Below, one piece after another: positions 343 through 17,929 of a stretch of DNA of 21,005 nucleotides. Source of the stretch: a candidate division WOR-3 bacterium. GTDB lineage: Bacteria; Hydrothermota; Tepidihabitantia; Tepidihabitantales; DTDR01. The notes under the pieces are model-generated. The model was not told the DNA's origin. It saw only the letters and a program-made list of their open reading frames with translations, and did not search any database. The position numbers and the translations under genes are program-made. The first letter of the stretch is position 1. Each line of letters begins with the position of its first letter. The stretch spans positions 1 through 21,005 of the forward strand of contig JBDRVN010000030.1 in the NCBI GenBank assembly GCA_039801885.1, in the 5' to 3' direction.

Positions 343-917
343 AGAAAGATAAGGAGAAAGTAAAAGAGAAAATTTTAGCCGTTGCCGAAGAGATGTTTTT
401 AAAAAAGGGATTTTTTCCAACCACGGTTGATGAGATTGCAAAACAGGCAAAAATAGCCAAAGGAACGGTTTATCTCTATTTTCCAACAAAAGAAAGTCTC
501 TATTTAGCCCTTTTTGAAAACAAGTTAAAAATGGGGATAGAAATTTTAGAGAAAGTGAAAGATATGCCGATTAGTGCGAAAGAGAAAATCTCTTTGATTT
601 TTGACGAGTGGTTTTCTAAGATTAAAAAGGCAAAAGGTTTTTCCAGTTTTCTTACTTTAGAAAATATTAATATTTCACCTAAAATTATTCTTCTTTTAAG
701 AAAAAAGATTCATCCGAAGATAAGAAAGATTTTTCTTTTGGTTAAGGAGATTTTTCAAGAAGGGATTAAAAAAAGGGAATTTAAGAATTATGATAGTAAA
801 TTGTTAAGTGTGATTTTTCTTCATCTTTTGCAAACAACTTTACTTTTTCCATCTTTTAATATTAAAGAAGAGGGAAAAAATCTTAAAGAGATATTTTTAA
901 AAGGAGTTGAGAAATGA
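339..917 (+). CDS. TetR/AcrR family transcriptional regulator
   Basis: N-terminal HTH ILAVAEEMFLKKGF..TTVDEIAKQAKIAKGTVYLYFPTKESL; 192 aa; precedes efflux genes; ATGA overlaps at both ends. Confidence 0.95.
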   Translation: MKKDKEKVKEKILAVAEEMFLKKGFFPTTVDEIAKQAKIAKGTVYLYFPTKESLYLALFENKLKMGIEILEKVKDMPISAKEKISLIFDEWFSKIKKAKGFSSFLTLENINISPKIILLLRKKIHPKIRKIFLLVKEIFQEGIKKREFKNYDSKLLSVIFLHLLQTTLLFPSFNIKEEGKNLKEIFLKGVEK

Positions 918-2314
918 AAAGGTTTTTAATATTAATTTTGGTATCAATTATTTATAGTGAGACCTTAATAGTTAGTTACGAAAAAGCCTGTTCTTTGGCG
1001 GTGGAGAACTGTTTATTGTTAAAAGTGAGTAATGAAAAATTACGGCAGAAATATTTTGATAAATTAACTTCCTTGGCTAACTTTTTTCCGCAGACAAATC
1101 TCTCTTTTGCTTATACTCGTTTAGACCAAGTGCCTTATTTTGTTTCTGGAACACCAATTTTTGGGAAATATCCTTTTCCGGTTTATGATATCTTTGGTAA
1201 TTTTATCGGGCTAACCGAATCAATTCCGGTAATTACTGGTTATCAAATTGAATCAATTCCTTTTGGCAGTAAGAATAATTATCTCTTTCGGTTAAGTTTA
1301 AATCAACCAATTTTTACTTTCTTTAAGATTTTAAGAGGTTATAAAATTGCCCAATTAAACGAACTTATTGAAAAGGAGAGTTATTTATTAACTTTAAATA
1401 CAATAAAAAAACAGGTTATTAATATTTTTTACAATTTATTTCTCTTGAAAAAGCAAAAGGATTTGCTCTTGGCTTCTTATGAACAGTTGAAGAGACATTT
1501 TCAAGCTTGCTCTACTCTTTATCAGAATGGTTTATTATCAAAGTTGGATTTATTAAAAACCCAATCGGTTTTAGAAGGTTTGGAGGTGAATATTTCCCAA
1601 ATTGCTCAGCAGGAAAGTCTATTACTTAGTAATTTTAAATTATTTTTAGGTTTAAAAGAAGAAGATGAGATTGTATTAGTTGATTCTTTTATTCACGAAT
1701 GGGAGAAAGAGAGATTGTTCTTAGAGAAAGAAGAGAGAAAACCGGATAGTTTAATTTTAATCGCTGAAAGAGAGAGAAGAGAATTAAAGACGCTTATTTT
1801 GACAAAAAAGATTATTGAAAATTCTATTAAAATCCAAAGAAGTTCATTCTTGCCTAATATTGTTGGTTCTTATAATTATGATTATAAAAAACCCTATTCT
1901 TATTTTGAAGATAAATGGAAAGGAAGTTGGAATTTTACTTTGGCGATAAATTTGCCATTAAGTCTTGGCGGTAGTGATTATACAAAAATGAAATCCTTAG
2001 AACATAAATTAAAAGAGGTTGACTTTTATTATAATTGGAATAAAGAATTGATAAAAAATGAGGTAAGGCAGATATATTTTAAATATCTCACAAGTTATGA
2101 TAATTTTCGGATAAGTTCTAATCAAGTAAAGATTGCCCAAGAGGCGTTAAAAGAAGCCGAAGAAGGCTTTAAAATGGGTAAGGTGAGCAATTTAGAATAT
2201 CTTGATACCGAATTGAAATTAAGAGAAGCAAGGTTAACAAATTTAAAAAGTTTAATAGAAAACATTATTAATAAAAAGGAGTTGGATTATGTGGTGGGTA
2301 AAGAGATTAATTAA
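914..2314 (+). CDS. TolC family outer-membrane efflux protein
   Basis: Signal peptide, two OEP-like halves (FFPQTNLSF / FLPNIVGSY; LNQPIF / INLPL; YQNGLLSKLDLL / FKMGKVSNLEYL); 466 aa; upstream of MFP and RND. Confidence 0.92.
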   Translation: MKRFLILILVSIIYSETLIVSYEKACSLAVENCLLLKVSNEKLRQKYFDKLTSLANFFPQTNLSFAYTRLDQVPYFVSGTPIFGKYPFPVYDIFGNFIGLTESIPVITGYQIESIPFGSKNNYLFRLSLNQPIFTFFKILRGYKIAQLNELIEKESYLLTLNTIKKQVINIFYNLFLLKKQKDLLLASYEQLKRHFQACSTLYQNGLLSKLDLLKTQSVLEGLEVNISQIAQQESLLLSNFKLFLGLKEEDEIVLVDSFIHEWEKERLFLEKEERKPDSLILIAERERRELKTLILTKKIIENSIKIQRSSFLPNIVGSYNYDYKKPYSYFEDKWKGSWNFTLAINLPLSLGGSDYTKMKSLEHKLKEVDFYYNWNKELIKNEVRQIYFKYLTSYDNFRISSNQVKIAQEALKEAEEGFKMGKVSNLEYLDTELKLREARLTNLKSLIENIINKKELDYVVGKEIN

Positions 2315-3164
2315 TTGGCAAGTTTTATTTTTCTTTCTTTTCTTAAATATTCTTTCTTGTCAGCAGAAAAAAATAGTTAAAGAGAAAGAGTTGCCAACAG
2401 TAGGCGTTCAGATTGTTGAAAAAGATAATTGCATTAAAACCGTAAAACTTTTCGGTCGGATTTGTGGCGAAGAAGAGGTGATTGTTGTCTCGAAGATAAT
2501 GGGCAAGATTTTAAAGATTAATAAAAAAGAGGGAGATATTGTAAAAATTAATGATACTATTATGTATATTTTAAACGATATTCCAGGTGCCGAATATCAA
2601 CCAGGACCGGTTCTTTCACCAATTAATGGAAAAGTTGGTAAAATCTATGTGGAACTTGCCCAGATGGTTAATATGGGAACACCAGTTGCTTTAGTTTTTT
2701 CTGATAAAAAATTAAGGGTAAAGGCAAAGGTTTCAGAAAAGGATTTATCTTATTTAAAAAAGAGGATGTCTTGTTATCTTGTTTTTGATAATAAAAGATA
2801 TGAAGGATATTTAGAAAAATTTAGTCCGATGATTGACCCATTAACTCGGGGTGCGGAAGTAGAAATTTATCTAAAGGAAAATAGAGACTTAAGAGTGGGT
2901 ATGCCTTGTGATGTTTATTTAATAATAGATGAGAAAAAAGATGTTCTGACAGTTTTACCAACCGCATTCTTCTTAAACGATTACTCTTCTCTTTATGTAG
3001 TAAAAGATGATTCAACAGTAGAAAAGAGAAATGTAAAAGTTGGTTTGATTGGTGATGAAAAAATTGAGATATTAGAAGGAGTAAAAGAAGGAGAAAAAGT
3101 AATAACTCTGGGCAAGGAATATGTAAAGGAAGGAAGGAAAGTAAGATTTCAGATTATTAAATAA
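2289..3164 (+). CDS. RND periplasmic adaptor (MFP), probable lipoprotein, lacking the alpha-helical hairpin (BesA-like)
   Basis: Lipobox-like ILSC; split lipoyl motifs (SKIMGKI...EGDIVK and SPINGKV...MGTPVA); SPMIDPLTR, LRVGM, VEKRNVKVG, EILEGVKEGEKVIT. Exact start uncertain. Confidence 0.9.
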   Translation: MWWVKRLINWQVLFFFLFLNILSCQQKKIVKEKELPTVGVQIVEKDNCIKTVKLFGRICGEEEVIVVSKIMGKILKINKKEGDIVKINDTIMYILNDIPGAEYQPGPVLSPINGKVGKIYVELAQMVNMGTPVALVFSDKKLRVKAKVSEKDLSYLKKRMSCYLVFDNKRYEGYLEKFSPMIDPLTRGAEVEIYLKENRDLRVGMPCDVYLIIDEKKDVLTVLPTAFFLNDYSSLYVVKDDSTVEKRNVKVGLIGDEKIEILEGVKEGEKVITLGKEYVKEGRKVRFQIIK

Positions 3165-3173
3165 GGAGTTAAT

Positions 3174-6100
3174 ATGAAGATAACTGAGATAGCAATTAGA
3201 AGACCAATATTAACATTTATGGTTGCCCTTGCCTTTATTCTTTTTGGAATAATTGGTGTTTTAAGAATGCCAATTGATTTATTTCCCAAAGTTGAACTAC
3301 CGGTTGCGGTAGTGGCAACTTTGTATCCTGGCGCTGGTCCGGAAGAAGTGGAACAAGAGGTGACAAAAGAATTGGAGAAACAGATTAGTACGGTTAGTGG
3401 AGTAAAAGAGATTACTTCTCGGTCAATGGAAAATTTTTCGGTGATTACTGTTACCTTTGATTGGGGAATTGATTTAGATGCGGCAACCAATGATATTCGG
3501 GATAAATTAGATTTAATTTTAGCCCAATTACCCAAAGAAGTTAATAAACCTTATATTTTAAAATTTGATCCTTCAATGATACCAGTAATGAATTTAGCAT
3601 TAATTGGCGAGGTTGATGAGGCTACTTTAACAAAGATGGCGGAAGATTTGGAGGCTCGTCTCCAAAGGGTTTCCGGAGTTGGAGCAGTTATTAGAATAGG
3701 TGGTGTTGAAGAACAGGTGAAATTATTTATCAATCCAAGGGCATTATATCAAACGGGAATCACCTTAGATAATTTAATAATGACTTTAAAGGCACAAAAT
3801 CTTAATTTTCCAATTGGTTATTTCAATTATCAAAATGAGAAATATCTTTTAAGGGTAGTGGGTCGTTTTAATGATTTAAGAGATATTGAAAATTTAATTG
3901 TTGGTTATAAGAATAATCAACCAATATTTTTAAAAGATATTTGTGAGGTAAATTGGGAAAAAGAAGAGAAAGAAAACTATGTTCGTTTTAAAAGAAAAGA
4001 TTGTATCTTTTTTGCTGTCCAGAAAAAGCCACAGGCAAACACGGTAGTGGTAGCTAATAATTTAAGAAAAGAGGTAGAAAAAATTCAAAAAGAACTGCCG
4101 GAAAATATAAATTTTTTAATTGTCTTTGATACTTCCGAATTAATAAAAAGGTCAATAAATAATTTGGTTAATAATCTATTATTAGGAGCAGTTTTGGCAG
4201 TTTTTATTCTCTTTCTCTTTTTAAGAAGATTAAGGGCAACAATTTATGTTGCCTTTGCTATTCCCCTTTCTCTATTTTTTGCCTTATTCTTTATGTATCT
4301 CTTTGGTTTTTCAATAAATATTTTATCTATTTCCGGCTTGGCAATTGCTGTTGGAATGCTTGTTGATTGTAGCATTGTCGTTTTTGAAAGTATTTATCGC
4401 CATCACGAACTTGGTTACGAACCGATTATGGCTTCTCAAAAAGGAACCGAATTGGTTGGGACAGCGGTTACCGCTTCTACCTTGACAACAATTGGTGTCT
4501 TTTTACCTTTGTTATTTATTACGGGCATTTTATCAGTATTCTTTAAAGAGCTTTCTTTAACCGTTACTTTTGCTTTATTATCCTCTTTGGTTGTTGCCTT
4601 GACATTAATTCCCTTGTTAACAAGTAAATTTTTTAAATGGGAAGAAAAGGAAGAAAGAGGAATTAAAAAATTCTTTAAGGATACCTACGAAAGATTGGAA
4701 AATTTTTATATGAAGATTATTAAATATGCCTTAGAGCATAGAAAATTGATAGTTCTTTTTATTTTAGGATTATTTATTCTCTCCCTTTCTCTTTTAGCAG
4801 TAATTGGTTTTGAATTCTTTCCTGAGCAGCAGATTAGAAGATTAGAAGCAAATGCCGAAATGCCTATTGGCACAAATCTTTACACTGCTGATAAGGCGAT
4901 AAGTGAATTAGAGAAATATATTATGGAAAAATATGAAAATGATTTAGATGGGATTGTCACCCAAGTGGGTGGTGCGGCTTCTATCTATCAAACAATCGCC
5001 CAGGATATAAAGACAAGCAGCGGCGTAATTACTTTGGTATTAAAAAGAGAGAAGAAAGGAAGGATAAAAGAACTGGAAGAAGATATTAGAAAAAAGGCAA
5101 AAGAGATACCGGGCTTAAAAGTTAGGGTTGCTTCCACGAGAGGTTATGTCCAATTTGCTGGTATGGGCGGAAGTAATTTAAATATTGAGATTTATGGTGA
5201 TAATTTAGAAAATGCCCGAGAATTAACAAAAAAAATAATAAGTGCTATTGAGACAATACCTTATTTAGTAGACCTAAAAGGTAGTTTGGAAGAGGCAGAA
5301 CCAGAAATTCAATTTGTTGTTGATAGAAATAAGGCAATTTTATACGGTTTAACCCCTTATCAAATTGGTTATGCTTTGAGGACAAAGATGGTTGGCGAAG
5401 TAGCAACCAAATATCGCACAGGTGGAAAGGAATACGAGATAATTTTGAAGTTAAAGAGGGAAGATATTGATGATATAAGAAACATTGAGAATATCTTTGT
5501 TAATAGTCAATTTGGTCAAGTTTTATTAAAGGATATTGCTGAAATAAGATTGGCAAAGGCACCGGTTGTAATTGAGCACAAAAATACTCAAAGGGTAGCA
5601 ACAATTACCGGGAATGTTGTTGGTCAATCTTTAGGAAGGGCAGCAATGAAGGTAAGAGGGATTATTGATAAAATAGAAAAGCCAATTGGCTTCTCAGTAA
5701 AAATTACCGGTGCTTATGAAGAAATGGTAAAATCTTATCGAGATTTAGCCTTTGCTATTTTGATTGCGATAATTTTAGTTTATATGATAATGGCTGCCCA
5801 GTTTGAATCCTTTTTATATCCCTTTGTGATTATGTTTACTGTTCCTTTGGCAATTATCGGCGTTATTTTTATACTTTTTATCACCAATACAACCTTCTCT
5901 TTAATTTCCGGTATTGGTGTTTTAGTTTTAGTTGGCATTGTCGTTAATAATGGAATTGTCTATGTTGATTATGTAAATCAATTGATAAGAAAAGAAGGGA
6001 TGTCTTTAAAAGAGGCAATAATTAAAGGTTGCCAAGTAAGATTAAGACCCATTTTGATGACCGCCTTAACAACGATTTTTGGTTTATTACCTTTGGCATT

Positions 6101-6230
6101 AAAATTAGGAGAAGGAAGCGAATTATGGTCGCCCTTAGGAATAAGTGTGATTGGTGGTCTTTTATTTTCTACTATCTTAACTTTAATTTTTATTCCAGTT
6201 TTATATTATATTTTTTCCAAAAAGAAATAA
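3174..6230 (+). CDS. AcrB/AcrD/AcrF family RND efflux permease
   Basis: 1018 aa; AIRRP N-terminus, YPGAGPEEVE, GMLVDCSIVVFE, QFESFLYPF, RLRPILMT; SD AAGGAG upstream of ATG. Confidence 0.97.
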   Translation: MKITEIAIRRPILTFMVALAFILFGIIGVLRMPIDLFPKVELPVAVVATLYPGAGPEEVEQEVTKELEKQISTVSGVKEITSRSMENFSVITVTFDWGIDLDAATNDIRDKLDLILAQLPKEVNKPYILKFDPSMIPVMNLALIGEVDEATLTKMAEDLEARLQRVSGVGAVIRIGGVEEQVKLFINPRALYQTGITLDNLIMTLKAQNLNFPIGYFNYQNEKYLLRVVGRFNDLRDIENLIVGYKNNQPIFLKDICEVNWEKEEKENYVRFKRKDCIFFAVQKKPQANTVVVANNLRKEVEKIQKELPENINFLIVFDTSELIKRSINNLVNNLLLGAVLAVFILFLFLRRLRATIYVAFAIPLSLFFALFFMYLFGFSINILSISGLAIAVGMLVDCSIVVFESIYRHHELGYEPIMASQKGTELVGTAVTASTLTTIGVFLPLLFITGILSVFFKELSLTVTFALLSSLVVALTLIPLLTSKFFKWEEKEERGIKKFFKDTYERLENFYMKIIKYALEHRKLIVLFILGLFILSLSLLAVIGFEFFPEQQIRRLEANAEMPIGTNLYTADKAISELEKYIMEKYENDLDGIVTQVGGAASIYQTIAQDIKTSSGVITLVLKREKKGRIKELEEDIRKKAKEIPGLKVRVASTRGYVQFAGMGGSNLNIEIYGDNLENARELTKKIISAIETIPYLVDLKGSLEEAEPEIQFVVDRNKAILYGLTPYQIGYALRTKMVGEVATKYRTGGKEYEIILKLKREDIDDIRNIENIFVNSQFGQVLLKDIAEIRLAKAPVVIEHKNTQRVATITGNVVGQSLGRAAMKVRGIIDKIEKPIGFSVKITGAYEEMVKSYRDLAFAILIAIILVYMIMAAQFESFLYPFVIMFTVPLAIIGVIFILFITNTTFSLISGIGVLVLVGIVVNNGIVYVDYVNQLIRKEGMSLKEAIIKGCQVRLRPILMTALTTIFGLLPLALKLGEGSELWSPLGISVIGGLLFSTILTLIFIPVLYYIFSKKK

Positions 6231-8068: not shown

Positions 8069-9508
8069 TTAACCTCCAATTTTTACTTTTCGAAATCTTG
8101 CTGGGCTTGCACCGTGACCAACGTGCATTACTTGGGTCGGGTCTCCTTTGCCACAATTAGGCACTCCCCAAACTTCCCAATATTTCTCATTACAAATGGC
8201 ATCACATTTCCGCCAAAGTTCATAAGAGATAGCCGAAAAAGAAGGTCTTCTTATCATTTCGGTCTTTTTACCATTTTTGATAATCCAACCAATTTCTGAC
8301 GAGATATGATAATTTAATCTTTTATCATCAATACTTGGTGCGCCCGCCGATTCAAAATAAACTCCTTCTTTAGTATCAGCAAATAAGTCTTCCAATTCCC
8401 AAGTTCCTGGTAAGAGATTAATATTCGTCATTCTAATTAATGGAATGGACTTCCAGGAATCAGCTCGCATTGTGCCATTACTTTTTTGATTTAAAACAAC
8501 CGCTGTTTCTCTTGATGTCAAATAACCAAAGAAAATTCCATCTTTTATTAGAAATACTTTTTGTGCCTTTACCCCTTCATCATCATAACCAAAAGTTCCT
8601 AAACCACCAGGGATCGTTGCGTCTGCCGTTATACTAACAATTTCACTGGCAAATTGGAATTTGTTTAACTTATCAATTGTCAAATGACTTGTTCCTGCCA
8701 AAGATACCTCAGTACCTAAAACCCGGTCAAGTTCGGTTGGATGACCAACTGTTTCGTGGACTTGGATAGCAACCATTGTGCCATCAAGAATAATATCAGT
8801 TTCCATATTAGGACATTCTCTTGCTTTTGTCAAAGCAACTGCCTCTTCGGCTACCCGTTCACAATTTTCTTTCAATTTTAATTCTTTGATAAACTCATAC
8901 CCCTTTGCCTTATAATGACCACCAATCATTCCGGGATAAGAACGAGAACCAGTAACCGTCCCCTTTACTGCTTCAGCCGAAATATAGCCGCCGGTATGAT
9001 AAATTGTCTGTTCAATAAAACTATCTTCTGTTGAAGCAAAGATTTGATACTTTTTATAAAAATATAACTCACTTTCCCGTTTTCTTATCCCTTTTACCTT
9101 TTTCATTATTTCGTCACACTCCATTAAGAGATTAATCTTTTCTTCCAAGGAGACCGAAAACGGGTCAATCTCAATTGGTGTTTGATAGGTATCTTTTACC
9201 GGCATAATTTCACAAATCTTAGTATCTTCCCTTTTTAATCTTGCGGAAGCTTCGGCAATCTCACAAGCCAGTTTTGCTGTTTTCATTACCTCTTCTTTTG
9301 TCAAAAGGGCAGTAGCGGCAAATCCCCAAGCGCCATTTTTAATAACCCGAATACCAATTCCCAAATCCTCTTCCTGTCTTATTAGATTTACCTTGCCATT
9401 TTCTTGACGAATTACTTCTTCTTGAATTCTTACCAATCGGACATCTCCATAAGAAACATTTAAAGTTTTTAAATAATCCAAAACTAAATTAACCAATTCT
9501 TTTGCCAT
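8069..9508 (-). CDS. tldD: TldD metalloprotease catalytic subunit
   Basis: GIGIRV...GAWGFA, HETVGH (HExxxH), GYDDEGV, PLIRMTN and C-terminal CGKG with the Cys metal ligand. ATG 9508 preferred over TTG 9514. Confidence 0.95.
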   Translation of the reverse strand: MAKELVNLVLDYLKTLNVSYGDVRLVRIQEEVIRQENGKVNLIRQEEDLGIGIRVIKNGAWGFAATALLTKEEVMKTAKLACEIAEASARLKREDTKICEIMPVKDTYQTPIEIDPFSVSLEEKINLLMECDEIMKKVKGIRKRESELYFYKKYQIFASTEDSFIEQTIYHTGGYISAEAVKGTVTGSRSYPGMIGGHYKAKGYEFIKELKLKENCERVAEEAVALTKARECPNMETDIILDGTMVAIQVHETVGHPTELDRVLGTEVSLAGTSHLTIDKLNKFQFASEIVSITADATIPGGLGTFGYDDEGVKAQKVFLIKDGIFFGYLTSRETAVVLNQKSNGTMRADSWKSIPLIRMTNINLLPGTWELEDLFADTKEGVYFESAGAPSIDDKRLNYHISSEIGWIIKNGKKTEMIRRPSFSAISYELWRKCDAICNEKYWEVWGVPNCGKGDPTQVMHVGHGASPARFRKVKIGG

Positions 9509-9513
9509 ACTCA

Positions 9514-9541
9514 ATTATAGAGAGAAGAGAAGAAAAATCAA
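9514..9541 (-). promoter_or_regulatory. sigma70-type promoter for tldD, probably leaderless transcript
   Basis: Minus strand TTGATT (9541-9536), 16 bp, TATAAT (9519-9514), 5 nt, ATG (9508); no SD. Confidence 0.6.
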
Positions 9542-9738
9542 GTTATTGAGTATTAAAACAATCAAAGAAAATATCAGAAAAGTCTGCCAAATAGGTTATC
9601 TTATTTTCTTTTATTGATTGTTAAGAAATAATCTTAAACTACCATTTTTTAGGATAACTACTTTTCCATCATAAATAACACTTTTTAAATTAACAACAAA
9701 TTTCTCAACCAAAAAATTTTAAATAATCTAAAAGTAAA

Positions 9739-9768
9739 ATTATAGAAAAATTTACAATAAAGTCTCAA
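9739..9768 (-). promoter_or_regulatory. Candidate second minus-strand sigma70 promoter
   Basis: TTGAGA (9768-9763), 18 bp, TATAAT (9744-9739). AT-rich background lowers specificity. Confidence 0.35.
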
Positions 9769-9795
9769 AAAAATCAAATCCAAAGCGGTCTCCAA

Positions 9796-9814
9796 GGCTA
9801 TATACTATATAGCC
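9796..9814. repeat. Perfect 19-bp palindrome GGCTATATA-C-TATATAGCC
   Basis: Read directly: 9-bp arms, 1-nt centre. Confidence 0.85.
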
Positions 9815-9831
9815 CCCTATCCGAATGGTAG

Positions 9832-9949
9832 AATTGATTTAAGTCTTTAAATTTCAAATACTTACCTAATTTTTGGGCAAAATAAAAAGTTTCCATACAG
9901 GAAACTGGAAAATTGATTTAAGTTATTGAAAATTAAGAACTTATAAATC
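9832..9949. repeat. Two direct-repeat units AATTGATT-TAAGT-N15-ACTTA, with palindrome AGTTTCC-N5-GGAAACT between them
   Basis: AATTGATTTAAGT exact at 9832-9844 and 9911-9923 (79 bp apart); ACTTA at 9860-9864 and 9939-9943; palindrome at 9888-9906. Confidence 0.8.
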
Positions 9950-10011
9950 GGTTGCTTTTATTACTTTAAAATAGGTTGGATTTAGAGCGAATCTTTAAAG
10001 TTAAAAGAGCC

Positions 10012-10119
10012 AAAAATTCCCCTTGACTTTTTTTTTTCGTGCCTATATTTATATATGTAGGATGCTGATAATGAAGATATTGAAATTATTTTTAAAAAAC
10101 ATAAAATAAAAAGGAGGAA
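10012..10119 (+). repeat. Duplicated promoter/5'UTR/SD module, copy 1
   Basis: Near-identical to 13649-13757. TTGACT 10023-10028, T10 tract, TATATT 10044-10049, AAGGAGG just before ATG 10123. Confidence 0.93.
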
Positions 10120-10122
10120 GAA

Positions 10123-10782
10123 ATGAAAAATGTAATTAAATTGGTATTTTTAACTTTTATACCTTTGATTATTTTTGCCCAAAGTTCGTTTTTAGATGAA
10201 CAAGAATGGCCCTGTCGTTCAGGTATTGATACGGCGCGATATCCTGGAGCCCCTGTGATGGATGAAGTTCGTGTTATTGAACCTGCCAATCCAAATTATC
10301 AAAATTATCATATAATTCTCTCTCCTGTTACAGGTGAGACTTTAAAAATATATGGTTGTAAAGTAAAGGTGGAAAATGATTTTTGTGGAATTTGTCGACC
10401 AGAAACACAATCTGGACCAATTGATGCTTTTTTGTTAGACCCTAATTACCAGTACATACCCCCGGACTATAAAAGAACAGAACCTTGGAGTTTCACACCT
10501 TTATATGCGCCAAGAGGATTTTTACCAGAAAGTGCTATCGTGTGGGCTTATACAGAAAGACAGGAGAGAGACACATCGGAACCTGTTCTTCTTTGGACAG
10601 GAGAAAAAAGAGCATATGGAGAAAATGTAAGAGTTTCTTGGGTATCTTGGCATCCGGCCTGGATAAGATATTACCGGTGGAAACAAGTGGGTGAGCATGA
10701 AGCGGTATATTATGATCCAAATCCTCCTTATCCGAGATATCGTGTACATACTGGTTCTGTGGCTAATCTTTTTTGGTGGTAA
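10123..10782 (+). CDS. Secreted hypothetical protein (Pro/Tyr/Trp-rich, 4 Cys including CxxC)
   Basis: Strong SD; Sec signal MKNVIKLVFLTFIPLIIFA|Q; no family recognised. Confidence 0.85.
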   Translation: MKNVIKLVFLTFIPLIIFAQSSFLDEQEWPCRSGIDTARYPGAPVMDEVRVIEPANPNYQNYHIILSPVTGETLKIYGCKVKVENDFCGICRPETQSGPIDAFLLDPNYQYIPPDYKRTEPWSFTPLYAPRGFLPESAIVWAYTERQERDTSEPVLLWTGEKRAYGENVRVSWVSWHPAWIRYYRWKQVGEHEAVYYDPNPPYPRYRVHTGSVANLFWW

Positions 10783-10799
10783 ATATAAAAAGAAAGCCC

Positions 10800-10832
10800 T
10801 TGGGCAGGCGGGCAAAAGCCTGCCCAATTTTT
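10800..10832 (+). terminator. Intrinsic terminator-like hairpin
   Basis: TTGGGCAGGC (10800-10809), 8-nt loop, GCCTGCCCAA (10818-10827), TTTTT; 17 nt after the stop. Confidence 0.8.
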
Positions 10833-10846
10833 AAATAATAATTAAA

Positions 10847-12184
10847 ATGGTAACTTTTATTGCATTTTTAATTTTTAATCAATGGTTAGAAACCCAAATT
10901 GTTGTTGGGAAAAATCCAACTAGTGTTTGCTATAATCCAATTAATCATAAAGTTTATTCATTGAATAGAAGAGGCTCAAGTATTTCAATTATTGATGCTG
11001 CTACAAATCAAGTGATTGACACAATTTTTGTAAATAATCCCTTTGGCGAAATTGTGTATAATTCTCAAAATAATAAAATATATTGTGTATCCGGTTCCTC
11101 ACAAGACTCAATTGTAGTTATTGATGGTGCCATCAATCAAATAATTTTAAAAATATTAAACCCTTCTTCAGGTGGTAGATTACTTTATAATCCCATAAAT
11201 AACAAAATTTATTGTTTTAATTGTGATGCTAATGATGTAACTGTTTTTGATGGCGAAAGAGATAGTTTAATTAAGATAATTCAATATGGAATTGGCGATG
11301 GTCCTGTGAAAGGTTGTATTGCTTTCCAATTTAATAAAATCTATTGTTTTAATACTTGGGATGGAACAGTTTCAGTAATTTCCAGTGATATAGATAGTGT
11401 GATTAAAGTAATTCCGGTGGCACCTCGTCCCGGAGGGATTGGTTATAATTTTAAAAATAAAAAAATCTATGTTTCCCATATATATGACCCAGTTGTAGAA
11501 ATAATCGATGCTGAAAAAGACACTCTCATTACGACTATAAACTTAGGTGCTTCTTCTTGGGGTAGTATTTCTTACGATACAGTATATAATAATATTTACA
11601 TTCCTGCAGATTATTATGTGGCAGTTATTGACGGAGAGACTAACGTTATAATTGATAGGATTTATTTTAGTGGTGCTCTTTATGAGACATTTTATAATCC
11701 AATAAATAAAAAAATATACTGCAGTTATGTGAGAATTCATCCAATTTTCCAATCAATAATTGGAATAATTGATACAAAAACTCGTCAAGTTATTGATACC
11801 ATTCCTCTTAATAGATTAGGAGCCTTTTTTCCTTTTTGTCTCAATCCCCGTGAAAACAGGGTTTATATTCCCCATGCTTGGGTGGATGCTAGTGGAACAC
11901 CGCGAGATTCAGTGATTTCTGTCATAAAAGACGAAGTAAGCATAAAAGAAAGCCGATCATCTTCTTCTTTTGAGATAAAATATTTCCCCAATCCTTCAAA
12001 ACCAGATTTTCTTATTTTACCAACTAACGTAGAAAGCGTTAAGATTTATGATGTTAATGGTAAATTAATAAAGAAGGCAAAAGGACAAAAGATTTCGGTT
12101 AAAGAAATAAAAACTGGTATTTATTTTGTTAAAATTTTTACCACCGAAAAAGAATATATTAAAAAATTGGTAAAAGTATATTAA
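10847..12184 (+). CDS. YncE/YVTN-type beta-propeller protein with T9SS C-terminal sorting domain
   Basis: Eight ~42-aa repeats (YNPINHKVY, YNSQNNKIY, YNPINNKIY, AFQFNKIY, YNFKNKKIY, YDTVYNNIY, YNPINKKIY, LNPRENRVY), most followed by a V/I-I-D-type strand; C-terminal YFPNP...IYDVNGKLI...GIYFVKI...KKLVK. Confidence 0.9.
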   Translation: MVTFIAFLIFNQWLETQIVVGKNPTSVCYNPINHKVYSLNRRGSSISIIDAATNQVIDTIFVNNPFGEIVYNSQNNKIYCVSGSSQDSIVVIDGAINQIILKILNPSSGGRLLYNPINNKIYCFNCDANDVTVFDGERDSLIKIIQYGIGDGPVKGCIAFQFNKIYCFNTWDGTVSVISSDIDSVIKVIPVAPRPGGIGYNFKNKKIYVSHIYDPVVEIIDAEKDTLITTINLGASSWGSISYDTVYNNIYIPADYYVAVIDGETNVIIDRIYFSGALYETFYNPINKKIYCSYVRIHPIFQSIIGIIDTKTRQVIDTIPLNRLGAFFPFCLNPRENRVYIPHAWVDASGTPRDSVISVIKDEVSIKESRSSSSFEIKYFPNPSKPDFLILPTNVESVKIYDVNGKLIKKAKGQKISVKEIKTGIYFVKIFTTEKEYIKKLVKVY

Positions 12185-12189
12185 CTAAA

Positions 12190-13608
12190 TTATTTCAAAA
12201 TCCCGTAAACCTCATAATATTGGTTTAAGCCAAAAACTGGTTTTGTTCTTCCTAAATAGATAAAATTGGTATCTTCTTTTGGTGAGAAGTTTAAAAAGAT
12301 TTTAAAGAAGTCAAACATCACTAAGTAATCGGCATTTTTTGTTACATAATCTTTTATATCCCTTTCATTTCTTTTTATATTTTTATAAAACCTTCTCATT
12401 TCCGGATTGGTTAAGCCGACCAAGTCCAAGATTTCCCTTTCGGAGAAATATTTTAAGGCACCGACGTCGTGGGTAGCAATAATTGCATTTTTATCGGTCT
12501 TTTCTTTGAAATAATTACTCATATCATATAAAACCTCTTTTGTTGCCAAGATAGAGTTATTATATTTTTGATAGCCATCAATTACTGAAAGAACTTGGTT
12601 AATAATAATTAAAGATAATAAAAAGTAGAATATTCTTTTCTTAAAAAAGTTTTCTATTCCCAAACTAATAACACCGATTACAAAAGGATAAAAGATATGT
12701 TGATAACGACACCAATAATGACCAGTGGAGCCAGGAAATAGAATAAGATAACTTAAATAGAAAAGAAAGATAAAGATAAGATAATAATATTTTTCATACA
12801 ATCTTTTGGCAAAGGGAAGGAAGATAAAGAAGAGAAAACTGAAAGGATATAAAAGTTGGTAATAGAAGAGTTTTAAGCCATCAGAAAAAAATTGGAATTT
12901 TGTTTTTATTGGTAAATTTATCTCATCAAAGAAATGTGTCTTGGCAATTCCTGTTTGGGGAAGGAAAGAATGAGTATTTTTATAGTTACTAATAAAGAAG
13001 GGGAGAAGGATTAAAAAGGTAATTGCAAAAGGGAATAATTCCTTTAATTTTATTCTTTTAAATATTAGATAAATAAAAAGGGCAACTCCTAAAAATATTC
13101 CCTCGGGTCGGGTATAAATTGCTAAAGCCAAAAATATGCCAAAAAGTAGGTTTTTCTTTTCAAAAAAATATAAGGTTAAAAGAATAAAATCAATAAAAAG
13201 AAGTGTTTCTAAACCTGATAAGGCATCAAAGATAATTAGACCAGTAGTAGCAGTTAAGAAAGAGGAGATAAGAGCGATTTTTTCGTTAAAGATTAATTTG
13301 TAATATTTATAAGTTAAAAAGATTAAAAGGAAATAGGAGAAAATACCTAAGATAATACTTGATAAAGGTAGATTATGGAAAAAGAGGTTGAAAAAAGAGA
13401 TTAGAAAAATATGTAAAGGGGAAGTAGCGCCTTCATTAAAATATCTGCCATCAAAAGTAAGCCCTTTATACTGAAAGAGATTTTTAGCAAAGGTTAAAGT
13501 GATATAACTATCATCATAGACTAAAAAGAGTTCTTTATTCTGCGAAAGATAAATTAAAGGTAAAATTATTGAAATAATAAATAAGAAAATTAAAAGAACT
13601 TTTCTCAT
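12190..13608 (-). CDS. Polytopic membrane protein, GT-C fold glycosyltransferase-like (ArnT/PMT/AftB-like)
   Basis: DDSYI acidic pair after first TM, then AKNL..G.TF.G...EGATSPL, SGLET, TRPEG, many TM helices, C-terminal soluble HDVGALKY...ILDLVGL domain. Confidence 0.75.
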   Translation of the reverse strand: MRKVLLIFLFIISIILPLIYLSQNKELFLVYDDSYITLTFAKNLFQYKGLTFDGRYFNEGATSPLHIFLISFFNLFFHNLPLSSIILGIFSYFLLIFLTYKYYKLIFNEKIALISSFLTATTGLIIFDALSGLETLLFIDFILLTLYFFEKKNLLFGIFLALAIYTRPEGIFLGVALFIYLIFKRIKLKELFPFAITFLILLPFFISNYKNTHSFLPQTGIAKTHFFDEINLPIKTKFQFFSDGLKLFYYQLLYPFSFLFFIFLPFAKRLYEKYYYLIFIFLFYLSYLILFPGSTGHYWCRYQHIFYPFVIGVISLGIENFFKKRIFYFLLSLIIINQVLSVIDGYQKYNNSILATKEVLYDMSNYFKEKTDKNAIIATHDVGALKYFSEREILDLVGLTNPEMRRFYKNIKRNERDIKDYVTKNADYLVMFDFFKIFLNFSPKEDTNFIYLGRTKPVFGLNQYYEVYGILK

Positions 13609-13612
13609 AAGA

Positions 13613-13642
13613 AATATATAACTTAAAAAATTATAAAATCAA
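13613..13642 (-). promoter_or_regulatory. Candidate leaderless promoter for the GT-C gene
   Basis: TTGATT (13642-13637), 18 bp, TATATT (13618-13613), 4 nt, ATG (13608); no SD. Confidence 0.45.
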
Positions 13643-13648
13643 ATAATT

Positions 13649-13757
13649 AAAAATTTCCCTTGACTTTTTTTTTCGTGCCTATATTTATATATGTAGGGAT
13701 GCTGATAATGAAGATATTGAAATTATTTTTAAAAAACCATAAAATAAAAAGGAGGAA
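13649..13757 (+). repeat. Duplicated promoter/5'UTR/SD module, copy 2
   Basis: Near-identical to 10012-10119. TTGACT 13660-13665, T9 tract, TATATT 13680-13685, AAGGAGG before ATG 13760. Confidence 0.93.
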
Positions 13758-13759
13758 TT

Positions 13760-14095
13760 ATGGTAAAATATATTAACAATTTATTTTTCTTATTTTTAAT
13801 TATTGGTTTTCTTATTATTGGTTTTCTTTTCATTCCCATTCGTAGTGAAGCAGTCACAATAACAATTTATGGCCACGGAGGAATTCAACTTGTCCCTCCA
13901 AAGGTGTGTCCTGACTCTGGTGGAAAATGTGCTGAAATAGTATTTTCTGCTTCCAACGGAAATGAAATTGTAATTCAAGATGCTAATACTGGACAAAAAT
14001 ATTTGGTTATTTTAGAGGAACCTCTTCCAGCGGATGCCACAGAAGTGCAGGGCGCGGACCTTAAGATAAAAATTATCGAACCTTTAGAAGAATAA
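13760..14095 (+). CDS. Small secreted hypothetical protein with C-x6-C loop
   Basis: Strong SD; long hydrophobic signal ending SEA|V; mature part ~80 aa with CPDSGGKC and acidic C-terminal half. Confidence 0.85.
   Translation: MVKYINNLFFLFLIIGFLIIGFLFIPIRSEAVTITIYGHGGIQLVPPKVCPDSGGKCAEIVFSASNGNEIVIQDANTGQKYLVILEEPLPADATEVQGADLKIKIIEPLEE
13799..13828 (+). repeat. Perfect 15-bp tandem duplication (ATTATTGGTTTTCTT)x2 = IIGFL-IIGFL
   Basis: Read directly; in frame within the signal peptide. Confidence 0.9.
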
Positions 14096-14097
14096 GA

Positions 14098-15846
14098 ATG
14101 GGGCTTTTAACAAGGAGAAGAGGGGGAAGAAATATTCTTCTCCCTCTTTTTTTAATTTCTTTTCTTTTTGCTAAATTAGAATGGGAAAAACAGATTCACC
14201 GAATGTATCAATTAGAAGGAACTAATAAATCAATTGAGAGGTTTTTTAAAAATTTAAATATCCCTTATAAATCAGATACTGTTTATGTATTTATGGTGCC
14301 ACCGATGGTGGCTGCCCGAGTCGAAATAGGAATAAATTCTTTTATTCAACATTTACGCAAGCAGAGTATTAAAAATGATATCATTCTTCTTGCGATATCT
14401 AATAAAAGACGGGCGACGGAAAAGTATCTTGAAAGAAGAAGATTTTTAGCAGATTATCAAAAAATAGTAAATGAAGAATTCCTGAAATTCTTTTATTTTT
14501 CTGGCAGTATTTTTGAGGTTCCTTTTGTTACCAAATTTTATCTTCCTAAAGGCGAATTGCTTTCTTCTTTTTCTTTAATGGGAAAAATTGATTCAATTAC
14601 TGTCTCAGAATTTATTGCTGACTTATCAAAACCTAAAATTAAAAGGGAAACCATATCTCTTAAAAAAGTAAAGATAAAAGGAGAAAAATATAAGCCAATA
14701 TTTGTAAAAAAATTAAAACTTTATGATACTGAAGAACATCCGCTTTCTTCTACTTTTTATATTAGTATTAATCCTTCAGGAACTTATCTTGCTTTAAGGG
14801 ATAATCTTTCCTATAGCGTTTATATTTTTGATTTAATAACTGGCAAAATGTTGAATGTTTTATATCCTGATTCAATAGAAGAGAGAATGTTCGTTAATGT
14901 TCCTGAGAATATTTATGTAATATTAAAAAAGATGAATGTTTTAAATCCAATGTATTTTAACCCCCAATTTTATGACGATACTACCATTTTTATTAGTGCT
15001 TCTTTACCAAGAATTGAGATTGATATAAAAGGAAAAGATACAAATATAAGTTATTTTAATGCTCGTTGTCTTATTAGAAAGAGTATCTTTTCTAATAAAA
15101 TATTAAAATATCTTCTATTTAAACAGCCTCCTTTAGACATCTCTTATCTAATTAAACATACTGATATCTCGGTTATTCCTCAAACTGGATTGATATTTGC
15201 TTTATTCAGCAAAGGTTGGCCTTATGGAGGTGAAGTATTAGATGAGTTAAAGATACCACCTGAAGAAAATCCATTTACCAATGAGTTTTATAAGGAACAT
15301 TTATATCAATTCGCCATCTATGACTCAGAAGTTAATTTCCTTTGTTTTCTTGGCAGACTAAATAAGCAGTTTGAAGAATTAAAAATGGGTTATTTTCTTT
15401 GCGACGGATTTGTAAAATTTTATGGAGATAAATATTATCTCACTGATAGATATTCGGGAATAGTGTATATTTATAATCAAAAATTTAACTTGCTTGATTC
15501 AATTATATTATTTGAGAATTCTTCCCTTGTGTCGCCTTCTATTTCTTATTCCAAAGACCCTGTGGGTTATTTAGTGGAAGCATATAAGAAAAATTTTAAA
15601 CGGCGTATTTTGGATTTTTTATTGTCAGATGGTTTTGGTTATGCTTTAATTAAGGAAGAGGAGCAGCCGGTAATATATAAAATAAATCTTAAAGAAAGAA
15701 AGGTAAGGAAAATCATTCTTCCAATTAAGATTGAAGGGAAAAAGATAAATTATTATATTTTAAGAAAAACTAATATAGGTAGCGTCGTATCGGCACTATT
15801 AGAAAACTTAGAAGAAACCTTTTATATTGAATTTAAACTTCCTTAA
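14098..15846 (+). CDS. Secreted hypothetical protein; possible degenerate thioredoxin-like N-domain plus beta-propeller
   Basis: 582 aa; RRR n-region and hydrophobic stretch ending LFA|K; propeller-like strands (ISINPSGTYLALRD...VYIFDLITGK; YYLTDRYSGIVYIYN; PVIYKIN). Gene call firm, fold is inference. Confidence 0.75.
   Translation: MGLLTRRRGGRNILLPLFLISFLFAKLEWEKQIHRMYQLEGTNKSIERFFKNLNIPYKSDTVYVFMVPPMVAARVEIGINSFIQHLRKQSIKNDIILLAISNKRRATEKYLERRRFLADYQKIVNEEFLKFFYFSGSIFEVPFVTKFYLPKGELLSSFSLMGKIDSITVSEFIADLSKPKIKRETISLKKVKIKGEKYKPIFVKKLKLYDTEEHPLSSTFYISINPSGTYLALRDNLSYSVYIFDLITGKMLNVLYPDSIEERMFVNVPENIYVILKKMNVLNPMYFNPQFYDDTTIFISASLPRIEIDIKGKDTNISYFNARCLIRKSIFSNKILKYLLFKQPPLDISYLIKHTDISVIPQTGLIFALFSKGWPYGGEVLDELKIPPEENPFTNEFYKEHLYQFAIYDSEVNFLCFLGRLNKQFEELKMGYFLCDGFVKFYGDKYYLTDRYSGIVYIYNQKFNLLDSIILFENSSLVSPSISYSKDPVGYLVEAYKKNFKRRILDFLLSDGFGYALIKEEEQPVIYKINLKERKVRKIILPIKIEGKKINYYILRKTNIGSVVSALLENLEETFYIEFKLP
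14118..14153 (+). terminator. Intrinsic terminator-like hairpin inside the 5' end of ORF 14098
   Basis: AAGAGGGGGAAGAA (14118-14131), loop ATA, TTCTTCTCCCTCTT (14135-14148; one G-U pair), T7 run 14147-14153. Confidence 0.75.
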
Positions 15847-15850
15847 AGAT

Positions 15851-17929
15851 TTATATCACCCTTGCCAATTCCACTTTGTCGGCAAATTTCCTTAATAAAT
15901 TCTCTTTGATTATCCTGTTTTCAAATTTTATTAAATTTGGGTCTTCTTCAATTATTTTGAAGGCATCCCTTTTTGCCATTAATAATAAATCTTTATCTTT
16001 TATCAAATCGGCAATCTTAAATTCCGGTAATCCGTGCTGTCGGGTGCCAAAGAATTCACCCGGACCTCTTAATTCTAAATCTTTTTCTGCCAGATAAAAA
16101 CCGTCATCACTTTTGACAAAATAACTTAATCTCAATAGAATTTTTTCATCGCTGATATTGGGTAATATTAAAAAGCAGTAAGAATCTTTTTCGCCTCGGC
16201 CAATCCTTCCCCTTAACTGGTGTAATTGGGCAAGACCAAACCTTTCCGGATGTTCAATCACCATTATTGAAGCATTAGGAATATCAACACCAACTTCAAT
16301 AACGGTTGTTGTTACTAAAATATGGATATTTCCCTTTTTAAACTCTTCCATTATTCTCATTCTTTCCTCGCTTTTTATTCTGCCGTGGATTAAGGCAACC
16401 TTTAAATCAGGAAAAGTATTTTTTATCTCTTCATAAACCTTGGTTGCCGCCCTTAAAGTTAATTTTTCACTCTCTTCAATTGTTGGACATACCCAATATA
16501 CCTGATTACCTTCTAAACATCCTTTTCTTATTTTTTCAACCAGTCTTTCTCTTGCTTTTACACTGATTAATTTCGTAATCACCTTTCCTCTGCCCGGTGG
16601 TTTTTCTGGTATGGTTGAAATGTCTAAATCACCATAAAGAATATAACTTAAAGTTCTTGGTATCGGTGTAGCGGTCATAACCAAAAAATGGGGATTATTA
16701 CCTTTGGCAAGTAAAGTGGCTCTTTGCATAACACCAAATCGATGTTGTTCATCAACAATCACTAACCCCAAATTTTTAAAATTAACATCACCTTCTAATA
16801 AAGCATGGGTACCAAAAACCAAATCAATCTCACCTTGGCTAATTTTTAAACATATTTTTTCTTTCTCTCTTTTACTAACACTGCTTGTTAATAAAGCACT
16901 CCTGACATTTAACTTTAAAAGTTCTTTACACCAATTAAAGAAATGTTGCTCAGCCAGGATTTCAGTTGGTGCCATCATTGCTACTTGATAGCCATTTTCA
17001 ATCGCGATTAATGAGGTATAAAGAGCAATTACGGTCTTGCCGCTACCGACATCTCCTTGAAGCAGTCTTGTCATACTTTTTCCTTTTCTTAAATCTTCTT
17101 CAATCTCTTTTATGACTTTTATTTGGGAAGGGGTTAATTGGAAAGGTAGATTATTAAGGAATTTCTTGGTTAATTCACCATCAGTCTTAAAAGTCGGCGA
17201 AGTTTTTAATTCTTCATACTTCTTTTTATTTAAGGCTAAAATAAGTTCAAAATAGAAAAGTTCAGAATAGGCTAATCTTTTTCTTGCCCTTTCCGCCTCT
17301 TTTAAATCTTCTGGAAAATGGATTTTTTTAAAGGATTCCCTTTTAGAATAAAAAGAGTATTTATTGATAATTTCTAAAGGCATGTCTTCTTCAATTAAAG
17401 AATAAGTTTTTTCTAATGCCTGTTTTATTGCCCTTCTTATATCCCAGTTAGAAAGTCCTTCGGTTAAAGGATAAATGGGAATGATTGTGCCGGCATATAT
17501 CTTTTTATTTTCGTTTATAAGTTCATAATAGGGATTGACCATCTCCTTTTGTTTGTAAAAATAAATTTTGCCTGAAACAACTAATTCCTGGTCTCTTTGA
17601 AATTTATATCTTAAATCGGGTCGATTAAACCAGACACAATGGAGATAATCAGTTCCATCCGATAAGATAAGTTCAATGACATTGCCTTTTGTTTTTGTCT
17701 TTTTTTCACCAACAAGAATAATCTTACCTTTAATTGTAACTTCTTCGTCAACTTTACAATCCTTTATTTTTTTTATATCCTTTAAATTCCAATAACGATA
17801 GGGAAGATGGTAAAGGAGGTCTTCAACTGTAAAGATATTTAATTTGTAAAAAATTTTTGCCCTTTTTGGTCCAATTCCTTTGAGATATTGGATATCCGAA
17901 TCAAGGGTTAAAAAAGTTTCTTTTTTCAC
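15851..17929 (-). CDS. recG: ATP-dependent DNA helicase RecG
   Basis: LKGIGPKRA, OB wedge, LLQGDVGSGKT, MAPTEILAEQH, VDEQHRFGV, MTATPIPRT, QLHQLRGRIGRG, DLELRGPGE; GTG start overlapping pcm stop. Confidence 0.98.
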   Translation of the reverse strand: MKKETFLTLDSDIQYLKGIGPKRAKIFYKLNIFTVEDLLYHLPYRYWNLKDIKKIKDCKVDEEVTIKGKIILVGEKKTKTKGNVIELILSDGTDYLHCVWFNRPDLRYKFQRDQELVVSGKIYFYKQKEMVNPYYELINENKKIYAGTIIPIYPLTEGLSNWDIRRAIKQALEKTYSLIEEDMPLEIINKYSFYSKRESFKKIHFPEDLKEAERARKRLAYSELFYFELILALNKKKYEELKTSPTFKTDGELTKKFLNNLPFQLTPSQIKVIKEIEEDLRKGKSMTRLLQGDVGSGKTVIALYTSLIAIENGYQVAMMAPTEILAEQHFFNWCKELLKLNVRSALLTSSVSKREKEKICLKISQGEIDLVFGTHALLEGDVNFKNLGLVIVDEQHRFGVMQRATLLAKGNNPHFLVMTATPIPRTLSYILYGDLDISTIPEKPPGRGKVITKLISVKARERLVEKIRKGCLEGNQVYWVCPTIEESEKLTLRAATKVYEEIKNTFPDLKVALIHGRIKSEERMRIMEEFKKGNIHILVTTTVIEVGVDIPNASIMVIEHPERFGLAQLHQLRGRIGRGEKDSYCFLILPNISDEKILLRLSYFVKSDDGFYLAEKDLELRGPGEFFGTRQHGLPEFKIADLIKDKDLLLMAKRDAFKIIEEDPNLIKFENRIIKENLLRKFADKVELARVI

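Follow-up and report, generated by a model that had tools for sequence, protein, structure and literature searches.

The locus described here lies in a window of 21,005 nucleotides, the whole stretch of DNA that was analysed, on contig C30 (JBDRVN010000030.1) of a metagenome-assembled genome (MAG) of a candidate division WOR-3 bacterium. It carries two gene cassettes, each preceded by a nearly identical repeat of about 110 bp. The MAG (1.56 Mb in 70 contigs, 31% G+C, 91% complete; hereafter G000) was compared within its genus with five further genomes, G001 to G005, of which fetched regions only were read. Parts of the stretch were present in 16 public runs, all but one of them labelled as hot-spring metagenome, and no RNA run was among those listed. 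The four cassette genes, P0001 to P0004, are located on the plus strand amid minus-strand backbone genes, namely tldD (8069-9514), a PMT_2-type membrane glycosyltransferase gene (GT, 12190-13608; PF13231, E 6.3e-10), which is kept in G002 to G005, and recG (15851-17929). Cassette 1 (P0001 and P0002) is head-to-head with tldD, GT lies between the two cassettes, and P0004 of cassette 2 (P0003 and P0004) is convergent with recG. The stop of P0002 is 5 nt from that of GT, and the stop of P0004 is 4 nt from that of recG.

The repeat, a putative promoter and leader module, occupies 10012-10122 (copy 1) and 13649-13759 (copy 2), both on the plus strand. Alignment of 10012-10120 with 13649-13757 gave 105 identities over 109 columns (96%), with one substitution and three 1-nt indels, and the second copy was recovered at E 1.4e-41 in a whole-genome search. 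The 60 nt upstream of the two copies were identical at 36 of 68 columns and the first 60 nt of the genes at 44 of 69. Because the flanking stretches diverge on both sides, the similarity is confined to the module and its edges are sharp.

Judged from consensus and conservation, the module probably consists of two sigma-70-like promoters followed by a consensus Shine-Dalgarno (SD) sequence. In its first part, an A-rich stretch lies upstream of the -35 element TTGAC (10023-10027 in copy 1, 13660-13664 in copy 2), which is followed by a homopolymer spacer (T10 at 10028-10037 and T9 at 13665-13673) and an AT-rich -10 block (10042-10056 in copy 1). Across copies this part consists of AAAATTTCCCTTGAC, a homopolymer of 6-11 T or A, and GCCTATATTTATATATGTAGGG, in that order. 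The TTCCCTTGAC...TATATTTAT core was also observed at six further sites in the G000 genome and, in G004, some 80-130 nt upstream from a tRNA gene, suggesting that it is a strong housekeeping-type promoter. The second part contains TTGAAA (10080-10085) and TAAAAT (10102-10107) in copy 1 and a hexamer pair within 13717-13745 in copy 2. TTGAAA-16/17-TAAAAT was exact in nine of the 11 copies read. In three variants (G005_C35, C43:13093 of G000, and G005:C14) the spacer sequence differs, whereas the hexamers and their spacing are retained, and the second part was therefore read as a second promoter with a very short leader. GGAGG is found at 10113-10117 and 13751-13755, placing it 5 nt (cassette 1) or 4 nt (cassette 2) upstream of the ATG of the small gene, and both copies terminate in AAAGGAGGAA a few bases upstream of that ATG.

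Other roles for the leader were considered and rejected. It appears unstructured (folding z = 0.09 and -1.04 for the two copies), which excluded a structured RNA leader; no Rfam family was matched, which excluded a known riboswitch; and the frame and stop of a candidate leader peptide (MKILKLF...) vary among the copies.

The small gene of cassette 1, P0001 (10123-10782, plus strand), encodes a predicted secreted protein of 219 aa with four conserved Cys and a C-terminal WW. Its family is tiny. An exhaustive phmmer search against 1.84 billion representatives returned four matches, itself included, no Pfam or NCBIfam family was matched, and a 64% homologue retains the four Cys and the terminal WW. 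Neighbours in the structural atlas reached feature scores of at most 0.81, with TM at most 0.51 to assorted beta-sandwich clusters, and serve as leads only. The public record and the ESM Atlas hold P0001 from residue 46 only (174 aa; start 10258); the 219-aa form from 10123 was favoured because of its strong SD and signal peptide. The large gene, P0002 (10847-12184, plus strand), starts with an ATG that no SD precedes and encodes a 445-aa protein with five YVTN beta-propeller repeats (TIGR02276, 89 bits) and a C-terminal sorting domain (CTD) of the type IX secretion system (T9SS), type A. The latter was recognised by PF18962 (Por_Secre_tail) at 43.5 bits (cut-off 27) and by TIGR04183 at 42.3 bits (cut-off 23).

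In cassette 2, P0003 (13760-14095, plus strand) encodes a predicted secreted protein of 111 aa with two invariant Cys in an alignment of 11 family members and a conserved acidic C-terminus (EPxE); where members of this family were identified beside P0004 homologues, they lie upstream of them. It matched no NCBIfam family, and its structure model (pLDDT 69.7) retrieved nothing at E ≤ 0.001 from the PDB by Foldseek. P0004 (14098-15846, plus strand) starts two bases past the P0003 stop. It encodes a protein of 582 aa with a predicted N-terminal signal or anchor. In the AlphaFold2 model, built with 17 homologues (pLDDT 85.7, pTM 0.85), this is followed by a thioredoxin-like domain (about residues 35-175) and a 6-bladed NHL-like propeller (about 194-582). 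For P0004, neither Pfam (E ≤ 0.01) nor NCBIfam (E ≤ 1) yielded a family. Its alpha/beta N-domain has no CxxC or Cys pair at the position expected of a thioredoxin-fold oxidoreductase; D60, T61, P69, R74 and E76 are invariant in it. Atlas neighbours carried Redoxin/AhpC-TSA domains (scores 0.85-0.88), again a lead only. For the propeller, 3s9j was the top of 976 chains (Foldseek, VIA-align), with Z 19.7 and rmsd 3.7 over 309 aligned residues, followed by 4raa (Z 17.3, 300 aligned) and eukaryotic NHL domains (Z 16-17). The predicted complex of P0004 (33-582) with P0003 (33-111), made with purpose-built alignments, scored 0.01 against a mark of 0.32, a result that counts neither way.

A GC-rich hairpin followed by a T run was detected by terminator scan between P0001 and P0002 (10800-10835, plus strand, stem 10800-10827; -21 kcal/mol, z -3.0), and may be an intrinsic terminator or attenuator. 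The same scan placed a long hairpin of 19 pairs, followed by T7, within the first codons of P0004 (14113-14153, plus strand; -26 kcal/mol, z -2.95), where it would be a putative terminator-like attenuator. In cassette 2 and in the module-led cassette on C35 of the same genome, the hairpin sequence overlaps codons by which the large gene specifies its signal peptide. Six of the nine small-to-large segments behind module copies contain a GC-rich hairpin (G000_m1, G000_m2, G000_m3, G004_A, G004_C and G005_C1b); four were given by the best-hairpin output of our script, and G004_A and G004_C were read by eye. Upstream GGAGG was missing from all nine large genes examined. Taken together, a strong SD on the small gene, a hairpin and no SD on the large gene suggest that the small protein is produced in excess. 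The most economical reading of this design is that the small protein would be strongly made, and the large one would come from minority read-through.

An initial annotation, made from the letters of the window, had described the two cassettes as plus-strand units in a minus-strand run whose stops lie within 5 nt of the next stop, sharing a layout and a near-identical module, and had seen no evident similarity between their genes. All of this was borne out by the present data. Both cassettes run small gene, hairpin, large gene, and BLASTP gave no match at E ≤ 1e-3 between P0001 and P0003 or between P0002 and P0004. The small secreted Cys proteins and large propellers that it named also stood, the former by the conserved Cys of P0001 and P0003, the latter by the YVTN match of P0002 and the model of P0004. 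Its claim of a terminator between the two genes needs amendment. Hairpins with T runs are present in both cassettes, but the second lies inside the first codons of P0004 and not in a spacer.

The distribution of the module in the genus was determined. Strong matches were obtained in three of the six genomes (G000, G004 and G005); those in G001 to G003 were short, with E 4e-5 or weaker. G000 holds three full copies, and a 29-nt fragment on C37. The third copy (C35:11886-11993) is 83% identical and precedes a predicted secreted 121-aa protein with four Cys, then a protein of about 450 aa with a weak T9SS tail. Weak nhmmer matches in C50, C5, C21 and C38 turned out on inspection not to be modules. 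An alignment of 12 copies from the three genomes was assembled, and nine of them are followed by two open reading frames (ORFs), the first encoding 110-220 aa and the second 445-733 aa. The genes behind module copies encode no fewer than six unrelated types of small protein and four of propeller, the repeat types of the large genes being YVTN with CTD, NHL-like, SBBP with CTD, and LVIVD with CTD (twice). A sorting domain at or above the Pfam cut-off is present in P0002, the 465-aa protein of G004_C, the 733-aa protein of G004_C22, the 718-aa protein of G005_C1b and a 447-aa protein on C43 of G000 (behind a module variant). None of the nine small proteins scanned had a family at or above cut-off in a Pfam search at E ≤ 1. 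The G004 copies A, B and C are 85-87% alike and 70-76% identical to the G000 copies; such clustering by locus fits gene conversion or local spread. The core pattern gave no match in a genome contig collection from which near relatives are possibly excluded, two matching contigs in a metagenome collection, and no match in viral contigs with the two patterns tried.

The inheritance of the gene pairs was examined through P0004. Homologues were found in 17 of the 272 phylum genomes searched, all within two families; the 17 homologous proteins are mostly labelled 'candidate division WOR-3 bacterium'. Of the 21 loci examined, 16 have an ORF that abuts the P0004 homologue and is matched by a P0003-family profile. 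Outside the genus, a P0003-like neighbour was present in 12 of 15 loci, the misses being L053, L062 (heavily disrupted) and L064 (at a contig start). Within the genus the profile missed only two P0004 orthologues, both of which are preceded by a paralogue. In G+C-rich relatives the P0003-like and P0004-like genes overlap and the module is absent. The other pair recurs as well: on G005:C14, a P0001-like gene (44% identity) and a P0002-like gene lie behind a module variant. These comparisons, drawn from sequence, indicate that each small/large pair is inherited as a unit, and the two proteins of a pair therefore most likely act together. P0001 also weakly resembles (26%, E 8e-4) the small protein in unit C of G004, whose partner is an SBBP propeller; partners may therefore be exchanged to some extent inside a small-protein superfamily.

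The cassettes were then placed in the synteny of the genus. In G003, ligA-pcm-recG-GT-tldD-pmbA are contiguous, the recG stop overlaps the GT start (ATGA), and the GT-tldD spacer measures 163 bp; in G002, GT and tldD are contiguous and 47 bp apart. Relative to G003, cassette 2 is a plus-strand insertion of 2,242 bp (13609-15850) exactly at the recG/GT junction. Cassette 1 is a plus-strand insertion of about 2.3 kb (9858-12189, left edge approximate) relative to G003 and G002. Other occupants were found in other congeners. In G005, whose flanking DNA is 96% identical, about 175 bp replaces the body of P0001 at site 1 and P0002 is frameshifted; its site 2 opens with the promoter core, continues with another member of the P0003 family and an additional P0004 paralogue, and closes with what remains of the module's second part and then the P0004 orthologue. 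In G004, three tandem module-led units stand between tldD and GT, and since the P0004 orthologue is among them, it occupies the opposite site from that in G000. A metagenome contig of the Joint Genome Institute (JGI) carries an SBBP/T9SS-tail gene at site 1, adjoining GT. Because the backbone is contiguous in G003 and other congeners have other occupants at these sites, both cassettes are accessory and strain-variable.

Further features were noted at these and related loci. The 40 nt from the GT start to module 2 (13609-13648) are part of the insertion and contain, on the minus strand, TTGATT-18-TATATT ending 4 nt before the GT start codon; cassette 2 may thus have supplied GT with a new promoter, possibly a leaderless one, on parting it from recG. 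On a metagenome contig of 2518 nt (L077), an ORF that starts like the P0004 orthologue is followed, after a break, by a second ORF that ends like the 579-aa paralogue, with a module copy and a P0003-family gene downstream; it looks like a recombinant of paralogous cassettes. In L073 (G003:C18, 4734-6159) GT is split into two ORFs with stops within the match, as a pseudogene or by assembly frameshift.

These features are brought together if each cassette is a variable operon that encodes a pair of extracellular proteins and is expressed from a reused strong promoter, with attenuation built in, an interpretation that we consider probable though far from assured. A genus-specific repeat of about 110 bp would drive each operon, which encodes a small Sec-exported protein and then a large exported beta-propeller protein. 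The small gene would be strongly transcribed and translated from the module, the hairpin and T run past it would halt most transcripts, and with no SD on the large gene the small protein would be in large excess over its propeller partner. P0002 would pass to the cell surface through the T9SS and P0004 would stay in the envelope, with the small protein as a ligand, subunit or substrate of the propeller, most likely acting jointly with it. Recombination among the copies of the repeat would keep them alike, and the same homology would let cassettes be gained, lost and reshuffled among the neighbouring intergenic sites of recG-GT-tldD.

The initial annotation had arrived at a related proposal, in which a portable expression unit drives interchangeable pairs of an abundant small protein and a scarcer partner. 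Portability agrees with the 12 aligned copies and the variety of small and propeller types behind them. Interchangeability holds in that varied pairs follow the module, but their halves are not freely interchangeable and are inherited as units. The relative abundance fits the design of SD, hairpin and SD-less large gene, but was deduced from the DNA alone. That annotation had also suggested looking for recG-GT-tldD contiguity in relatives, which was seen in G003, and had named as contrary outcomes the existence of only these two copies, pairs that do not co-occur in other genomes, and cassettes fixed in synteny. None of these was observed: the module is present in more than two copies, the pairs are found together in other genomes, and the synteny varies.

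Several observations weigh against the operon interpretation. Three of the 12 copies are not followed by a small gene and then a large one: G005_m1 has its small gene deleted, G004_B stands immediately before the P0004 orthologue, with no small gene between them, and two large T9SS-tailed genes come after G005_C35. The large partner in G005_C1a (619 aa) shows a phosphatase domain alone and no propeller, and frameshifts or in-frame stops, possibly MAG errors, occur in several genes of relatives. The T9SS machinery of G000 stays below curated cut-offs, with a PorU-like protein at 260.7 bits (cut-off 420) and a PorV-like protein at 86.8 bits (cut-off 250), neighbouring on C8, and SprA as a 26-bit fragment at most in a genome that is 91% complete. 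A simple promoter scan found 36 hexamer pairs versus 33.3 in shuffled sequence and missed the first promoter, whose spacing to TATATT is 14-15 nt. Promoter strength, start sites and termination are putative assignments from consensus, and signal peptides were judged by eye from translations.

The module might instead be the control and recombination element of a surface-variation system, which seems unlikely to us. In such a phase-variable system, the T/A run between -35 and -10 would slip and switch the cassettes on and off, and module homology would swap them between sites and strains, giving the population a variable surface, for example against phages or grazers; if true, this would be a promoter-borne, integrase-free cassette system by which cells in hot-spring mats diversify their surface. 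In all 12 copies TTGAC runs straight into a homopolymer of 6-11 nt, whose length varies: T10 in G000 and T8 in G005 at site 1; T9 in G000, T10 in G005 and T9 in contig L078 at site 2. Runs of at least 9 are rare, numbering 45 in 1.56 Mb. Moreover, the cassettes encode secreted or surface proteins that evolve fast and are specific to strains, and in P0001-like cassettes the conserved unit extends into the signal peptide. On the other hand, TTGAC with a homopolymer of at least 7 occurs at 27 sites in G000 and is hence a common promoter style. Overlapping -10 hexamers could absorb length changes, and a second promoter lies downstream of the run. The differences in run length were seen between assemblies, and length differences of this kind between MAGs are also the most frequent assembly error.

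It is likewise improbable that the module is a mere local strong promoter, a recent duplication or gene conversion of a housekeeping-type promoter, with the small and large genes as neighbours without joint function. The core does resemble generic G000 promoters and the G004 tRNA promoter, and copies a few kb apart are most alike. A propeller neighbour would not be rare either, as T9SS-tailed proteins are very common in G000 (56 matches, 48 above cut-off). However, the full module, with both promoters and the SD, stands almost solely before small-plus-large pairs (9/12). Under a crude criterion of N-terminal hydrophobicity, a small ORF of secreted appearance lies upstream of only about 8 of the 56 T9SS-tailed genes; the module is present at those on C30 and C35 alone, and only these two are among the clear cases. 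The P0003/P0004 pairing spans two WOR-3 families without the module, and the P0001/P0002 pairing recurs, which also argues against chance neighbours.

Integron-like cassettes, in which a recombinase encoded elsewhere would recognise the module or a 3′ site, are very unlikely. The insertions are clean, one falling precisely at the junction of the recG stop with the GT start and the other in the GT-tldD interval, and the same sites have different occupants in four genomes or contigs. Against this, no integrase or transposase domain was found among the 15 window ORFs scanned, as the initial annotation had noted; the 3′ ends of the two cassettes share no sequence or site; and neither inverted repeats flanking both modules nor a family of repeats at the ends of the cassettes was found, nor any recombination site, terminal repeat, clear target-site duplication or match on viral contigs. 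Chimeric joins induced by the repeat in a metagenome bin can practically be dismissed: repeats like the module are typical mis-join points for assemblers and frameshifts are seen in relatives, but the identical order and junctions appear in G005, an independent MAG (96% identity over blocks of 6.3 kb and 2.9 kb), a JGI contig also has the GT-module 2 junction, and at least half of the stretch's sampled words are present in five public runs, so that the cassettes, whose junctions recur, are not taken as an artefact.

The operon interpretation was compared with described systems. [quoted passage not shown] The present copies are identical at 60 of 63 columns in that window, and their genes, with no BLASTP match between the cassettes and starts identical at 44 of 69 columns, are non-paralogous. 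Like PMPs, then, the module is near-identical upstream DNA before non-paralogous genes (PMC3575422). Unlike them, it is tied to one operon class and includes a leader and SD; it is also common to three congeners with locus-wise homogenisation and marks cassettes that turn over between strains. The initial annotation knew of no description with a shared promoter module. Promoter reuse as such is already in print (PMC3575422), whereas the tie to one operon class, the genus spread with homogenisation, and the cassette turnover at fixed backbone sites appear to be new. No published description of the module was found in the literature searched, which covered WOR-3 and T9SS topics, nor was a paper joining WOR-3 with type IX secretion.

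[quoted passage not shown] Unlike Vlp, the window has two-gene pairs and not single repetitive lipoproteins, its host is a free-living thermophile, and the system is known here from sequence. The likeness reportedly extends to a homopolymer within the promoter, as Citti and Wise are said to have described a poly(A) run in the vlp promoter in 1995. Operon-internal read-through terminators that fix the ratio of subunits, as mentioned for Bacillus subtilis in PMC4198240, also have a hairpin and T run between genes one and two. They differ in that the cassette 2 hairpin, a putative terminator, is encoded in the signal-peptide codons of the second gene.

For P0004, the propeller shares its fold with the exported 6-bladed propellers of Bacteroides, the DUF4221 protein BVU_1028 (3s9j) and BF0058 (4raa), which belong to the same superphylum. 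The resemblance to Bacteroidota propellers suggested by the initial annotation thus held for the fold, but no sequence family was matched: identity is 9-11%, and P0004 differs further by its Cys-less thioredoxin-like domain and its dedicated small partner gene. Bacteroidales also have small-peptide and propeller pairs with NVEALA or GG-type precursors; the small proteins found here match no described small-protein family. P0002 has the C-terminal sorting domain of T9SS type A cargo proteins, as do four further large proteins behind the module, and P0004 has no such tail. To our knowledge, descriptions of T9SS cargo architecture do not include a small upstream gene that is co-transcribed and expressed more strongly.

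Should the operon interpretation hold, promoter reuse can attach to a specific class of strain-variable secreted-protein operons, and the turnover of cassettes may be driven by homology between copies of the promoter, with no need of a recombinase dedicated to it. The module would flag the accessory genes that these cells express most. We know of almost no experimental genetics for WOR-3, and a compact, conserved and probably very strong promoter with leader and SD would be a ready expression part for such thermophiles. Moreover, a conserved two-gene unit is defined, a P0003-like disulfide protein with a P0004-like protein, which occurs in two WOR-3 families, has a distant Bacteroidales relative, and offers a target for biochemistry.

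Some further observations concern the cassette proteins. An aromatic residue stands at the C-terminus of all the P0001-like proteins and of the small protein encoded on C35 (...FWW, ...AIW, ...AEW, ...LNW, ...TIF; loci 10123-10782, L034:7001-7558 on the minus strand, L036:11890-12537, L041:4319-4984 and G000 C35:11991-12356), which is reminiscent of the C-terminal signal of outer-membrane beta-barrel proteins. The G005 orthologue of P0002 (L035, G005:C20) is frameshifted at an A run, by real decay, slippage or MAG error, and in L041 (G005:C14) the P0001-like gene has an in-frame stop and the P0002-like gene is split, by decay, slippage or MAG error.

Related promoters were also seen elsewhere. 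A second repeated promoter type in G000, TTGAC with T8-T10 and CATGGTTATAAT (or AGAATTTGTTATAAT), is often found before secreted or T9SS-tailed genes (C27:1154 and C22:8258(-), C22:1145(-), C43:13093(-), C43:3019(-), C67:864(-)); the copy at C43:13093 also has the TTGAAA-17-TAAAAT and GGAGG of the module. On C37 of G000 (9046-9131, 9221-9249, 9428-9461 and 10008-10211; locus L082), the 29-nt fragment is an exact match to the second part of the module and lies about 90 nt past a tRNA gene. About 180 nt beyond it is a generic TTCCCTTGACA promoter, followed by a cobalamin riboswitch (93.6 bits) ahead of a TonB-dependent receptor-like gene. First promoters like that of the module precede GC-rich structured leaders at L039 (G003:C3, about 6616, minus strand) and L044 (G004:C5, 5842-5637, minus strand); the gene behind the leader encodes a nucleotidyltransferase in G003 and a tRNA in G004. 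For the leader in G003, the searches made gave no Rfam assignment.

In the rest of the window, no tRNA gene was found, and no Rfam family reached its gathering score; over 9400-16000, a search at E ≤ 1 gave chance-level rows alone. The tldD-side spacer contains a stretch of about 90 nt around 9780-9830 that is retained in G003 and G004 (72-76% identical), and a 33-nt direct repeat (9832-9864 and 9911-9943), neither with an Rfam match. At 339-6230 lies an ordinary RND efflux operon, with a TetR regulator, a TolC-like outer-membrane factor, an HlyD-type adaptor and an AcrB-type pump.

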